64,000 bases of DNA from Bryobacterales bacterium (GTDB taxonomy: Bacteria; Acidobacteriota; Terriglobia; Bryobacterales; UBA6623), in contig OY729428.2 in the NCBI GenBank assembly GCA_963422375.2, positions 3,456,001-3,520,000 on the forward strand, read 5' to 3'. Position numbers: made by a program. Below, piece by piece: positions 15,001-21,000 of this stretch. The stretch's first letter is position 1, and every line of letters begins with the position of its first letter.

Positions 15001-18000
15001 ACGGGCACATCGGCGCGAAGGCCTTCGCCCGGATCCTGGGGCACGCCGAGCTGGCGGACAAGCCCTTCATCCTCGAGACGCCCTTCATCGACGAGAGCCA
15101 TCGCGAGAACGTGCGCAGGCTCCGCGCCCTGGCCGAGGGCCGGATCGCGGACCTGCGGGCCGGCAGCTAGTCGTCGCTTCTGCCTCCGGCTAGCGGGCAC
15201 GGGCTCCCGCCCGAGCCGACTCCCATCAGTTTAGTCCACCGCGTCCCGCATCGGCCCCGACGGCCCTCCGACCGCGCAGCACGACTCGCTCAGGCGACGG
15301 GCAGCGCGGACGCCGCGAGTTTCCTGTAGGCCTGCCGCACCGCGGGGAGGCGGGCCCCTCGCGCGTCGCCGAACGGCACGAGAGCGTCCGGCTCCGGCGG
15401 CTGCCTCACGCCCCCGGCTAGGATCCAATCGCGCGTCCGCGGGACGGGAGCCGCGGGGCTCACGGGCGAGTAAAGCCATCCGGCCGGCCGGCCGGCCGCG
15501 GCGAACTTCGCCGCGATCGGCTGGATCTCGCCGTCCGGCAGGGACCCGAACGCCCGGAACCACGCCTCCGGGGCGGCATCGGCGATCAGCTGAACCAGCG
15601 GCATGCAGTCGACTCGCCCCAGCCAGTCCGCGTTCACGAGCAAGTCGGCCACCACGAAATCGTACGAGGTTCCCGCGCGCGCCAAGTAGTCCTCGGCATC
15701 GGCCACGTGCAGGCGCAGCCGGCCGGCCCGCTCGTAGTGGCGCACCAGCGGGTGAAACTCCCGCGCCATGCCCGCCATGGCCGGATCCGCGTCCACCGCG
15801 TCCATCTCCAAGCCCGCGAACTGGTGCAGCAAGCCGACCGTCCCGCAGCCCCCGCCGAATCCGAGCATCAGGCCGCGCCCGCCGGGGTGTCTCTGCCCCG
15901 CCAGCAGCCAAGCGAGCTGGTACCGCGTCTCCATCACGGGTCCGGGTCCGGCGGGCAGCGCCGGGTCCGCCCAGGCCGCGCCCGGTTGCAGCAGCGAGGC
16001 GCCCTGCAGCACGCCGCCGATCGTGAAGCGGCGCGCGTCGGCCGTGTCCACGACGCCCACGCGCCCGAACAGGCCCTCGCGTTCGAGCCTGACCGCGGGC
16101 ACCGCGGTCAGCTCCGCTTCCCAGCGCGCACGGCCATCTCGAAGTGCTCGCCGAGGTAGACCCGCCGCACCTCGGGGTCGGCTTGCAGTTCCCGCGGCTG
16201 CCCGGCCCGGAAGACGGATCCGTTGTGGATGATCAGCGCCCGGTCGGTCACGGCCAGCGTCTCGCGGACGTTGTGGTCGGTGATCACTATGCCGATTCCC
16301 TCCCGACTCAGTCTACCGAGGACGCCTTGCAGCTCGAGCACCTGCTTCGGGTCGATCCCGGAGAACGGCTCGTCCAGCAGCAGGAAGCTGGGCGACAGCA
16401 CGAGCGAGCGCGCGATCTCGACGCGCCGGCGCTCGCCCCCCGAGAGCTGGTACCCCCGGCTGCCGCGCACCTTGTCCAGCCCGAGCAGGGCGATCAGGTC
16501 GTCCAGCCGCTCGCGGCGCTCCGCGCGGACCAAGGGCAGCGTCTGCAGGATCGCCAGGATGTTCTCGTCCGCGGTGAGCCTGCGGAAGACCGACGCCTCC
16601 TGCGGCAGGTAACTGATGCCCAGGCGGGCCCGCTGATACATCGGCGTGTCGGTGATGTCGCTGTCGTCGACGAACACCCTGCCCGCATCGGGGCGGACCA
16701 GACCCGCGATCATGTTGAACGAAGTCGTCTTCCCCGCCCCGTTCGGCCCCAGCAGGCCGACGATCTCGCCCCGGCGGACCTCCAGCGTGAAGTCGCTGAC
16801 GACCTGGCGGCCCCCGTAGCTCTTGGAGAGCCCCTCGGTGCGCAGCGCTTCCATCGGGCGGACGCTCCGGGCGGCTACCGCGACGCCGGGCTGTAGGTGT
16901 AGGCACGCTGCGCCCCGCCGCCCCGCGCGAGCAGGCTGTCGCCGTCCATGCGGAAAGTCAGGCGAGCGCCGCGCGTCTCGGTGCCGTCCGGCGAGAGCAG
17001 CCGCGCCGGCCTGCCCGCCAGACGGACTTCCGAGTCGGCCGGGAGGAACTCCGCGGTGTCGGCGAACCCGCGGATCCCCGTGCCGTCGGCGAATTCGGCG
17101 ATCCGCACGCTACCGCTGGCCACCGCCGTGCCGGACGGTGACTCGCCCGCTTCGCCCAGAGCCGCGCGCAACTGCTCGCACAGCGCTCGGAAGCCGCTCC
17201 GGCGGAAGTCCACCGACTCCCGGAACCAAGCCTCCCCGGTCCCCTCGTCGTAGGCCATGCGCGCGGCCAGCACGGAGACGGAGCCGCCGGAATCCGCGGA
17301 GTCGGACCACCGCGCCGAGACGGCCCCCTCGGCGCGGAGCGCCGCCGCCGCCCGGTCGAGGACGATCGCATCCGCGTCGATGCGGTTCCGGCCCTGCCAG
17401 AGCCGGGCCTCGCCCCGATACTCCAGCGCGCTGCCGCCAGGCGCCGCAACCAGCGAGTCCGCAGCGGCGAAGACCGCCTGCTGGCTCCCGAATAACCCGG
17501 ACGGCAGGCCCGCGCCGTCGCCGCCCGGCGCGACGGACACGGTCACGCCGCCGCGGGCCTCCAGCCGGCCCGACTCCCGGTCGAGTTCGATGCGACTTGC
17601 GGAAACGACGCTCCCTCCGTCGGACACGCTGGCCGCGCCGACGAGCGTCAGCGCGCCGCCTTCCAGCTCGAAGCGCGCCTCTTCGGACTCGCCTCGCCTC
17701 GCCTCCCCGCCGTCGGGGCGCCGCTCTTCGAAACGGAAGCCTCCCTCCTGGCGGATGCCCGAGATCGCGGCCGTCGCCGGATCGAACGCAGCCGTCAGGC
17801 TCTCGCTCCAGGTCCGCAGGCCGGGCCCGCCCGCCTCGCCGGCCGCCTGGAACATGCGCGCGTCGCCCGCAGCGTCCAAGGCCTCGACCCGGTTCCCGCC
17901 GCCGTAGCGCAAGCTGATCCGATCAGCCTCCAATGTTCGGGAGGCCGCCCGCGGGTCGGGCGACACCTGCTCCAGGCGCCCCCTGCGCAGAGTCTGGACG

Positions 18001-21000
18001 CGCTCGACCTCGCTCGACGCGGCGCGCATCTCCAGCAGCAGCTCCTCCGACCGAATCGTGTTGCGCGAGCCGTCCGGCAGCAGGTCCATGCGGGCTCGCG
18101 CGTCGCCGCCCGCCTCGACCCGCTTCAGGAAGCTGCGGCCCGCGACCGGCCCCGGATCGTACAGCAGGTCCACGGACCGGCCTCGCACGCTGACGCCGCT
18201 GCCGGGGCCCGACGCAACGAAGCGCGTCTCGCCGCGACCGCGCAGTTGCAGCAGCTCGCCTGCCTGCCCGAAGTCGGCCCGCATCTCCGGCGTAGCGAAG
18301 CGGGACTCGCCGCCTGCGGAAGCCTCGCCGCCGTTCGCCGCGTCAGCATCCAGGCGGCTGAGCCGTCCGCCGGCCAGCCACAGCGTTCCGCGGGCGCAGT
18401 CCATCCAGCGCGGGCCCTGGCGGACGCTGGCCCCGCCGGTCAAGTCGATCCGCCCGCGCGCTTCGCGATACAGCAGGCCGCCCGCCCGAATCGTCGTCCG
18501 GGATCGCACGTCGCCGTCTCCCGCCGTTTCGATCCAGACGTCCGCAAGCATCCGCAGCGTCCCGGACCCGGCCTGGTACTCGGCCCCCGCGGAGCGCCCG
18601 CGGCCTCCCTCAAACTCGTAGCGCACCAGCCGGTCGGTGCGCGCGCTATTGGCCGCGGGCCGGAACGTGACCCCGGACGTGGACGCCACGACCGGCCGGT
18701 CGGGGTCTCCCTCGGAGATGCCCAGCGTAAACACGGTCTCGCCCTCGCTGTACAGGTCGCCCCCGTCGGCCAAGCGCATCGCGGCGCTCTCGACTCGGTC
18801 GTGCGTGTCCGAGCCGCCACGAAAGATCTTCAGCACCACGCCCCGCAGGTCGGTCTGCACGCCGTCCGCGCCCTGAACGAAATCCTCGGCGCTGACCTCG
18901 ATGCGGGTCGAGTCCCCGGTGGTCTGCGTCCAGCGCCAGCTCTGCGATTGGGCTCCGATGCGTTCCGGCAGGACGGGCAGCGTGTCGGGCAGGAATCCCG
19001 CACCGGCACCTCGCGATTCCATGTAATCGCGCGCGACAAAGGCCATCAGGCCCACTGCTAACAGAACGAGCAGGGATCGCAGTGATTTCTGCAAACGATC
19101 TGATGGTATCAGGGGCCGTGCTCGAACTGACCCGCCGCCGTGCGCGGCAGCGCGAACGCCACGTAGCTGCCTCCCGACTCCGCGCCGGTCTTGCCGCCGC
19201 CGGCGGCGATCACGACGAACTGGCGGCCGTCCGCCGCGTAAGTCGAGGGCGTCGCGTTGCCGCCGGCCGGCAGCGTCGTCTCCCAGAGCAGTTCGCCCGT
19301 CAGCTTGTCGAATGCCCGGAACTTCTTGTCGCGGGCGGTCGCGCCGATGAACAGCAGGCCGCTCGCGGTGACCACCGGGCCGCCGTAGTTCTCGGTACCT
19401 GTCACGGGCATACCTTGAGCGGTCAGCTCGGGATACTCGCCCAGGAGCACGGTCCAGTCGATCCGGCCGGTGTCGAGATTGACGGCGTTGAGCGTGCCCC
19501 ATGGCGGCTCGATAGCCGGATACCCGTCGGGATCCAGGAAGCGGTTGTACCCGTCGTGGGTGTACGGCGACTCGGAGGCGCCGGCGGCCGGTATTTCGAC
19601 CTGCGCGGTCGAGTCCCCCTCCAGGACGAATCGCGCGATCACCTTCGCCGCTGCCTCGCTCAGGCCGGGAAACGCCGGCATGCGGCCCGAGCCGCCGCGG
19701 ACGATCCGGACGAACTCGCCGACAGCCAGCGGCAGGTCCAGCAATGAGGGGAAGGCCGGAGGAGTCCCGCTCAAGTCGTCCTGATGGCAGGCCGCGCAGT
19801 GCCGCTGGTAGAGACGCTTTCCGTTTGCCGGTCCGCCAGCGGCCCCCCTGGGCAAGAGCCGGTGGATCCACGCCATCTCGTTGACGTTCACGTACAGCAG
19901 CCCCGTTTCCGGATCGAAGGCCTGGCCGCCCCATTCGGCACCGCCGTCGAAGCCGGGGAACACGATCGATCCCTGCAGGCTCATCGGCGTGAACATGCCC
20001 TCGCTCCGCACCCGCCGGAACCGCTTCAGCACGGCCTCGCGGGCCTCGGGCGTGCGGGTCGTCAGGTCGCTTTCCGTGAGGCGCTGCCGTCCCAGGGGCG
20101 GCGGGGCCGCGGGCACGAGCTGGCTCCGCGCCAGCCGCTCCCCGGGAACGTTCGAAGGAATCATCTCGAGCTCCCTGAGCGGGAACAGGGGCTCCCCGGT
20201 CTCGCGATCGAAGACGTAGACCATGCTCATCTTCGTCGACACCGCCACCGCGTCGACCAGCCGTCCTCCGCGCATCGCGGTCACGAGCACCGGAGGGGCG
20301 GGCACGTCCATGTCCCAGACGTCGTGCCGTACGAGCTGGTGGTGCCACACCAGCTCGCCGGTCCGCGCGCGCAGGCAGAGGAGCGAATTGGCGTACAGGT
20401 TGTCGCCGTGGCGGTTGCCTCCCCAGAAGTCGAACGCGCCCGAGCCCGTGCCCGCGTAGACCAGCCCGCGACGCTCATCGAGCGCCATGCCGGCCCAGGA
20501 GTTCGCTCCCCCGAGAGTCTTCCAAGCGTCTTCCGGCCAGGTCTCGTAGCCCGGCTCGCCCGGGTGGGGGATCGTGTGGAAGGCCCAGCGGAGCTGCCCC
20601 GTCGCGGCGTCGTAGGCGCGGATGTCGCCCGGCGCGCTCGGCAGGCCCTCGCTGACCACGCTCCCGACGACGAGCAGGTCCTCGTAGACTACACCGGGCG
20701 TCCGGAGGCTGACCGAGAGCTCCATCGAGCGGGGCTGGAGATGCTCCCGCAGGTCGATCGCGCCGCCCTCGCCGAATCCGGGGACGGGCTCGCCCGTGCG
20801 GGCGTCCAAGGCGTACAGCAGATGCCGCGCGCCGGTGTAGATCCGGGAATCTTCGCCGTTCCGCCAGTGCATGAAGCCCCGGTTCTGCGTGCGGCCCTTG
20901 AAGGGCGCGCCGTCCACTTCGAGCCGCCGCGTCCAAGCCTCTTCCCCGGTCGCGGCGTCAAGGGCGAAGACGCGGCCGTCGGGGCTGAGGCCGTACAGGA

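Follow-up and report, generated by a model that had tools for sequence, protein, structure and literature searches.

How is lipopolysaccharide (LPS) carried between the two membranes of a bacterium in which the gene directly upstream of lptB encodes one long beta-taco chain? The question is raised by a locus in a 64,000-nucleotide stretch of Bryobacterales DNA (the window). LptC is a small protein of about 190 aa whose C-terminal edge is free and binds LptA as a separate protein, and in E. coli this section consists of two small proteins, LptA being the oligomerising one. Here, in contrast, we find one 739-aa chain of gene-set length, LptCA, which runs on for about 540 residues past its LptC-like part, where a typical LptC ends in a free edge. 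Very probably, LptCA is the periplasmic bridge of Lpt LPS export in one inner-membrane-anchored chain. The features concerned are the following.

16108..16854, minus strand: lptB, LPS-export ABC ATPase, 248 aa (TIGR04406, 328.8 bits against a cut-off of 240)
16875..19094, minus strand: lptCA, fused LptC-LptA bridge gene, 739 aa, with an inferred TTG start
19002..19094, minus strand: N-terminal basic stretch and hydrophobic helix, residues 1-31, predicted to remain uncleaved and to anchor the chain in the inner membrane like that of LptC
18489..18962, minus strand: LptC-like beta-taco domain, rungs 1-9, residues ~45-202 (6mit_C, 9doq_C, PF06835 in homologs)
17706..18488, minus strand: middle spacer, ~14 beta rungs, residues ~203-463, with the greatest length variation among relatives
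16878..17705, minus strand: C-terminal part, residues ~464-739, four half-units of ~65-75 aa, or about two LptA equivalents (PF03968, PDB profiles)

The minus-strand frame of lptCA is unbroken down to its stop at 16875, 20 nt ahead of the lptB start, an order found in most loci where both genes were seen; the position upstream of lptB is shared with the E. coli Lpt system (LptB2FGC-LptA-LptDE). From stop to stop the frame spans 1199 codons and reaches into the upstream dehydrogenase gene, so that the start has to be inferred. The best candidate appears to be the TTG at 19094, since the initial methionine of close homologs aligns there and the only strongly hydrophobic segment is retained. An uninformative scan for sigma-70-like promoters returned none near lptCA.

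This DNA has a GC content of 67% and abounds in long spurious frames, and the frame is broken in a few relatives, which would suit an artefact, from assembly or from high-GC read-through, that joins separate lptC and lptA genes. That reading, to which we give almost no weight, is refuted by conservation: the frame that holds the best match is 675 aa or longer in 116 of the 119 class genomes with a match. Six apparent split lptC/lptA cases were inspected (G068, G040, G208, G218, G136 and G030; G231 and G092 were left out), and in each the downstream piece overlaps the upstream one, comes after it or lies at a contig end. G068, G040 and G208 were rejected as true splits, being broken frames with downstream pieces that lack a clear signal sequence; the least certain is G068, whose downstream piece has a mildly hydrophobic stretch. 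G218, G136 and G030 were rejected as lying at contig ends.

The LptC-LptA fusion and a second one, of LptF with LptG, are spread across the whole phylum Acidobacteriota, so that the class-wide range given in the first-pass annotation was too narrow, while the conservation it reported stands. LptCA lengths across the phylum range from about 490 to 870 aa, and among the TIGR03002 matches listed (150 of 290 in the phylum search) none lies in a frame shorter than 247 aa. Nine genomes of one family gave no profile match; the 570-580-aa candidate of that divergent family has sub-threshold LptA matches only, and its profile comparison with LptCA was weak, at a probability of 9.

The AlphaFold model of LptCA (pLDDT 91.5, pTM 0.80, nothing of low confidence past residue 39) comprises a helix at residues 2-31 (DSSP) followed solely by beta strands from 46 to 734, in agreement with the membrane-anchored 740-aa beta-taco previously proposed. 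The modelled strands form one continuous groove of ~39 rungs, of which ~30, roughly 3.5-4 LptA equivalents, lie beyond the LptC-like domain. Continuity of the groove is a property of the model; in the alignment, at least one conserved hydrophobic column falls in each of the 39 rungs and two or more in 36. The bridge length of ~19 nm is a strand count on the model and not a measurement. Foldseek on the whole model placed megalin/LRP2 and teneurin in the top four ranks, and the earlier LptD hits at a probability near 1 were reproduced but are uninformative (TM 0.13-0.20, rmsd 35-44 Å).

Comparison by segment was more telling of the LptC and LptA families. The N-terminal domain favors LptC over LptA, aligning with LptC 6mit_C at Z 17.6 (VIA-align; rmsd 2.7, 150 residues), and the LptCA profile matches LptC 9doq_C at E 6.5e-6. 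The best LptA and LptH matches fall in the C-terminal part: LptA 2r19 at profile positions 469-605 (E 3.5e-8), 8onu at 608-737 (E 9.3e-12), LptH 4uu4 (Z 12.3, rmsd 2.0) and LptA 2r1a_C (Z 12.3, rmsd 2.0, 126 aligned), with half-units that resemble each other as repeats (probability 93-99). In the structure comparison, the middle ~260 residues taken alone match no solved structure strongly; HHalign relates them to the C-terminal LptA-like units with a probability of up to 97.2, and PF03968 is found on 30-63% of the members of their ESM Atlas look-alikes.

Homologs carry the same signature. We collected 64, of which 63 have 41-61% identity at 91-100% coverage (68 and 67 in the first-pass annotation, in close agreement). 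PF03968 is present in all 64 and PF06835 in 16; on the query itself PF03968 scores 48.3 bits against a cut-off of 20.4, PF06835 gives no match to the sequence alone, and the LptA equivalog TIGR03002 stays at 60.1 bits, below its cut-off of 71.7. Among 30 homologs scanned, 29 show LptC then LptA domains, with PF06835 inside the N-terminal ~230 aa and above cut-off in 27. As had been anticipated, databases already tag these long proteins as LptA or LptC, and of 10 clusters looked up at JGI, 6 bear the name 'LptA'.

That name would fit a protein that loses its N-terminal helix as a signal peptide, leaving a long soluble LptA in a system that lacks LptC, and E. coli does survive loss of the LptC helix, or of LptC itself given an LptF suppressor (PMC4986956). 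We consider this unlikely, as the first domain is closer to LptC, PF06835 matches in homologs often begin inside the helix, and A-x-A after the helix is not enriched (18/115 homologs, 14% background), with a lipobox-like motif in 2/115. The 19-residue Kyte-Doolittle maximum (1.85, at residue 3) marks the sole strongly hydrophobic segment, a hydrophobic 19-mer (≥1.6) lies near the N-terminus in 115 of 129 aligned homologs, and V. cholerae LptC (6mjp_C) can be aligned from residue 2. The helix thus probably stays uncleaved as an inner-membrane anchor.

An LptCA bridge would work without a free LptA, and, as first reported, lptA and lptC do not turn up as genes of their own: a search of 64,757 frames from this genome, which is 96.4% complete, gave no other LptA/LptC-like frame. 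Three candidates for a hidden LptA were rejected, namely C2:701899 (E 0.14), which reads as an efflux adaptor-like protein, C2:2123084, merely a 62-codon frame, and C2:3134500, the only LptA-sized candidate from the pooled half-unit profile (E 0.47), which has a lipoprotein-type N-terminus and, on reading, no taco repeat. Sensitivity to divergent tacos is limited, since in the filtered genome search bridge segment profiles recover the taco of LptD itself at E 3.2 only, so that a free LptA of similar divergence might escape detection; with a genome 96.4% complete and 150 of 290 TIGR03002 matches listed, this would suit a long protein that is only an extended LptC, completed by one or more divergent free LptA molecules. 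We regard that as quite improbable, given a C-terminal half that is recognisably LptA, the nature of the one LptA-sized candidate, the lack of short frames among the listed matches and a modelled direct contact with LptD.

In this complex model, residues 538-739 of LptCA and residues 45-222 of the organism's own LptD score 0.70, compared with 0.46 for the best of three controls; the mark for such scores is attained by 116 of 157 solved pairs and by 2 of the 215 mismatched ones. At least 90% of contacts recur between runs (partner pLDDT at least 77), and the interface puts the last rung (719-737) on the first LptD rung. The control that reached 0.46 retained LptD, indicating that the LptD edge is sticky. 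The model thus predicts docking of the LptCA C-terminal edge on the LptD N-terminal domain, for a pair so textbook-like that it may pass by likeness.

The permease is also fused. LptF and LptG form one 780-aa frame, F then G, at a separate locus (C2:3068198-3070540), as originally described, passing both TIGR04407 (302.5, cut-off 230) and TIGR04408 (310.1, cut-off 240). Each half combines membrane helices with a beta domain in the periplasm (Foldseek: LptG E 2.4e-13, TMt 0.78; LptF E 4.8e-12), and the two are connected by a poorly conserved linker of ~50 residues, with no break at the junction in 30 of 30 loci examined. The families are those of the LptF/LptG pairs in PDB 6MIT, 6MJP and 5X5Y, where there are two chains instead of one. 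The presence of fused lptFG contradicts the phylogenomic study PMC8871954, which states that Acidobacteria apparently lack lptF and lptG, a miss that we infer the fusion itself to have caused.

The genome encodes lpxC, lpxB, waaA, lpxK, lptD and lptE, and lpxC is found in 150 of 151 phylum genomes. Since its Lpt genes are single-copy and all five lipid A/Kdo-transfer and translocon families tested are present, LPS would need the LptCA route, with additional cargo possible. The same observations speak against another lipid or surface lipoproteins as the main or additional cargo, which we hold to be a slim chance even though Lpt homologues export sphingolipid in Caulobacter (10.64898/2026.04.12.717747) and, in Bacteroidota, where LptA is long as well, surface lipoproteins (10.64898/2026.10.03.756453).

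Sequence, fold, gene position, pathway and docking model agree with the earlier proposal of LptC and several LptA units in one chain, and we envisage LptCA and LptFG as a variant of the known Lpt system, with a presumably conserved function. The N-terminal helix and LptC domain would seat on LptFG and take the lipid A acyl chains, LPS would be pushed through the one continuous hydrophobic groove, the last LptCA strand would pair head-to-tail with the first strand of the LptD N-terminal taco, as in the E. coli arrangement, and LptDE would insert LPS into the outer leaflet, with no LptA oligomer. Covalent continuity in the bridge is confined to its LptC and LptA units, its contacts with LptFG and LptD would be non-covalent, and 'single-chain machine' was an overstatement for five gene products (B, FG, CA, D, E) in place of the usual seven.

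Such a chain has neither an LptC-LptA nor an LptA-LptA interface, and past the permease the only periplasmic joint left is the one between bridge and LptD. Tentatively, and with more doubt than conviction, we suggest that the lptCA gene encodes a ruler of the periplasm, with rungs gained or lost in the middle spacer, such that the spacing of the two membranes follows, and may be determined by, gene length. If so, a whole phylum with fused LptF-LptG exports LPS without a diffusible or oligomerising LptA, and a fixed bridge permanently tethered to the inner membrane suffices. A literature search found no measurement of acidobacterial periplasm width; the phylum-wide LptCA length series would offer a direct test of bridge length against that width. 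The number of LptA subunits in a bridge is described as unresolved in PMC7347655 and PMC10863985, and a natural single chain of defined length offers membrane-to-membrane reconstitution and cryo-EM a bridge that does not oligomerise.

No description of natural acidobacterial LptC-LptA or LptF-LptG fusions was found in our literature searches. The finding is less surprising in view of the existing database tags and of two precedents. E. coli LptC (PF06835; PDB 3MY2, 6MIT chain C) and LptA (PF03968, TIGR03002; PDB 2R19/2R1A) likewise proceed from helix to beta-taco to LptA-type units, and an engineered fusion of the two is stable with LptB2FG and delivers LPS to LptD in nanodiscs in an ATP-dependent manner (PMC12065857); its covalent C-A junction is shared but artificial, whereas LptCA is natural, ~3.5-4 LptA long and phylum-wide. 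A long one-chain Bacteroidota LptA, continuous with LptD, has 56 ladder strands by cryo-EM (bioRxiv 10.64898/2026.10.03.756453), similar to the about 60 that we count for the ~30 LptCA rungs past the LptC domain; in B. thetaiotaomicron, however, LptC is a separate gene (BT_4369; 10.64898/2026.10.02.756314), whereas LptCA holds LptC and anchor in the same chain. Lastly, the pABC permease of Thermotoga maritima, an organism without LPS genes, is likewise a natural fusion of Lpt-like modules, joining LptF/G, LptA and LptD-like domains in an architecture unlike that of LptCA (PMC10160955).

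The gene before lptB, here called lptCA, very likely encodes a real and phylum-wide bridge in which LptC and LptA form one chain:

Window 16875-19094, minus strand: lptCA, 739 aa from a TTG at 19094 (inferred start)

The start is inferred because the open frame (1199 codons from stop to stop) extends beneath the upstream PQQ-dehydrogenase gene; the TTG coincides with the Met of close homologs. lptB begins 20 nt past the lptCA stop and matches TIGR04406 with 328.8 bits (cut-off 240). The PQQ-dependent dehydrogenase, which carries an inserted cytochrome c domain (19109-21247, minus strand), stops 14 nt short of the lptCA start, and the ~460 codons left open under it can mislead start calling. 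Five nt after lptB lies a methyltransferase/spermidine-synthase-like gene (15290-16102, minus strand; weak Pfam matches), replaced in five relatives by a gene that we take from its sequence to be rpoN-like.

Taken alone, the lptCA protein matches PF03968 (48.3 bits, two stretches), has no PF06835 match, and scores 60.1 against TIGR03002, below the cut-off of 71.7. A word-indexed search returned 64 homologs, 63 of them with 41-61% identity at 91-100% coverage; PF03968 was present in 64/64 and PF06835 in 16/64. The nearest relatives with a name carry the labels Acidobacteriia/Terriglobia and Bryobacterales, which places the host among the acidobacteria. A search of the full representative library yielded 808 matches at E<=0.001, the best 150 being mostly 720-830 aa and full length. 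Among 30 scanned members of an alignment of 129 homologs (A1), PF03968 was found in all and PF06835 in 29 within the first ~230 residues, 27 above cut-off. In a comparison with PDB sequences, profile positions 2-189 of A1 matched LptC (E 6.5e-6), and two later stretches, 469-605 (E 3.5e-8) and 608-737 (E 9.3e-12), matched LptA. ESM Atlas look-alikes form 631-771-aa clusters with both families, commonest in Acidobacteriota and auto-named OstA or LptC, and "LptA" is a member name in 6/10 JGI clusters; such proteins are therefore already annotated, under single-subunit names.

AlphaFold2 on A1 produced a model (pLDDT 91.5, pTM 0.80) with a helix at 2-31, beta strands from 46 to 734, and no low-confidence stretch after residue 39. 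When VIA-align compared this model with 48,161 chains, the top match was LptC (6mit_C, on model residues 45-202; Z 17.6, rmsd 2.7, 150 aligned). LptH and LptA aligned with residues 533-700, at Z 12.3 and 11.1, and the matches also included MORN-repeat proteins (Z 11.9-13.3). Foldseek, whose LptD matches the first-pass annotation had offered as support, was uninformative, with TM<=0.20 and megalin and teneurin ranking above LptD. HHalign revealed four half-units of ~65-75 residues between residues 464 and 726 (four of the six pairs detected at probabilities of 93-99, the other two undetected) and connected the middle segment to these C-terminal half-units with probability up to 97.

Grouping of the DSSP strands gave 39 rungs, each spanning both sheets, which at the beta-strand spacing of 4.8 A corresponds to an estimated, not measured, length of ~187 A. 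No rung lacks a conserved hydrophobic column and 36/39 have at least two, mostly in the alternating register that a continuous apolar groove would need. Because E. coli LptA comprises 16 strands over ~40 A (PMC7347655, PMC10863985), the 30 rungs that follow the LptC domain amount to ~3.5-4 LptA. Extrapolated from the ~15 nm of a one-LptA LptCAD (PMC10863985), the bridge would span roughly 25 nm; no measurement of acidobacterial periplasm width was found in the literature, and lptCA renders the bridge-length question testable. The N-terminal helix, found in 115/129 homologs and followed by an A-x-A motif in 18/115 (background 14%) and a lipobox-like motif in 2/115, looks like a membrane anchor.

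Within the class, A1 matched 119/121 genomes, the best match lying in a frame of at least 675 aa in 116/119; the three short cases sit at a contig end (G218), are broken (G208) or fall on two contigs (G231). Earlier described as class-wide, the fusions are indeed present throughout the class and extend beyond it, with A1 matches in 136/151 phylum genomes and PF03739, the LptF/LptG family, in 149/151. The tallied genomes are related to one another, not independent, and include the unpublished-flagged G023, G048, G145, G212, G225 and G233, on which no claim rests. Of 61 genomes, 40 (G023 included) had loci containing both ends, and their estimated lptCA lengths were 587-874 aa. PF06835 matched in 100/151 genomes, every frame being at least 310 aa and just four below 590 aa; some second matches are probably LptD. 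TIGR03002 gave no frame below 247 aa among 150 listed of 290 matches, and lpxC occurs in 150/151 genomes. One family had A1 matches in 0/9 genomes; the three that were read have, upstream of lptB (adjoining it in two, one gene between in the third), a gene for a ~570-580-aa protein whose N-terminal part includes a hydrophobic stretch, a tentative bridge because PF03968 matches were sub-threshold in the two scanned. A version of ~490 aa that clearly matches PF03968 occurs in G105; this 1.9-Mb genome also harbors a second lptB-like copy above the family cut-off (G105:C5:1490-2176). In G230, a second lptCA-like gene (572-codon frame, L162:1835-3550, contig C8) accompanies the 694-codon copy and is either a paralog or contamination. 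In G035, a 1112-codon gene (L131:6014-9349), presumably secreted glycoside hydrolase-like, separates a long bridge-like gene from lptB.

LptF and LptG likewise form one 780-aa protein in the genome studied, above both equivalog cut-offs; its model (pLDDT 85.7, pTM 0.78, low-confidence linker ~372-421) resembles solved LptG and LptF chains. Among 150 listed of 333 PF03739 matches, all frames were at least 732 aa, one genome excepted. The junction was uninterrupted in 30/30 best loci and the complete fusion intact in 28/30; the two others (L042/L139 in G056, L044 in G054) change frame within the LptG half, probably through assembly errors. The fusion was also found in 5/5 genomes of the divergent family lacking A1 matches. 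A frame that we take to be transposase-like lies ~500 nt upstream of the fused gene (L001:4752-5684, minus strand). These results contradict the statement in PMC8871954 that lptF and lptG are "apparently lacking in Acidobacteria"; an acidobacterial LptF/LptG permease is mentioned, without remark on fusion, in the consulted part of PMC8787282.

The genome harbors lpxC, lpxB, waaA, lpxK, lptE and a 769-aa LptD with a single ordinary N-terminal taco. Docking of lptCA 538-739 with LptD 45-222 scored 0.70 versus 0.46 for the best control, the docking mark being reached by 116/157 solved pairs and 2/215 mismatched pairs; contact agreement between runs was at least 90% and partner pLDDT at least 77. 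The predicted interface sets the last rung of lptCA (719-737) onto the first of LptD (48-63), a textbook geometry that possibly passes by likeness and supports binding as favoured, not proven. The earlier claim of no separate lptA or lptC stands: none was detected in 64,757 frames with family models, profiles of five segments, one profile pooled from the half-units and one of LptD-N, a search of limited sensitivity because the segment profiles reach the LptD taco at just E 3.2 (an LptD-only profile detects lptCA at E 0.009).

Most likely, LptB2 and single-chain LptFG would pull LPS out of the membrane, the anchored LptC domain would take it from them, and LPS would move through a single covalent groove to LptD-LptE, the Lpt gene products most likely being reduced from seven to five. 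The "single-chain LPS export machine" proposed initially thus survives in its two fusions and not as a whole, because no covalent bond joins the bridge to the permease or to LptD. Published work already describes a long LptA in one chain and an artificial LptC-LptA fusion that works, and the acidobacterial arrangement is a variation on the known Lpt system. The engineered fusion is stable with LptB2FG and supports ATP-driven LPS transfer to LptD (PMC12065857). Bacteroidota LptA, which cryo-EM shows to be continuous with LptD, has 56 ladder strands versus 16 in E. coli, and its length is ascribed to a wider periplasm (bioRxiv 10.64898/2026.10.03.756453); LptC is separate in B. thetaiotaomicron (10.64898/2026.10.02.756314), whereas in lptCA it shares a chain with the LptA units. 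In Thermotoga, LptF/G, LptA and LptD-like domains are fused (PMC10160955). The consulted parts of PMC4986956, PMC10353723, PMC10542722, PMC11130926 and 10.64898/2026.04.12.717747 contain no natural LptC-LptA fusion, and no description of the acidobacterial fusions was found in a literature search that covered subscription journals thinly and in which supplementary tables could mention them. A third fusion in the LPS pathway of this genome is the 794-codon frame shared by waaA (PF04413) and lpxK (TIGR00682) at C2:2721001-2723382 (plus strand; loci L154/L166).
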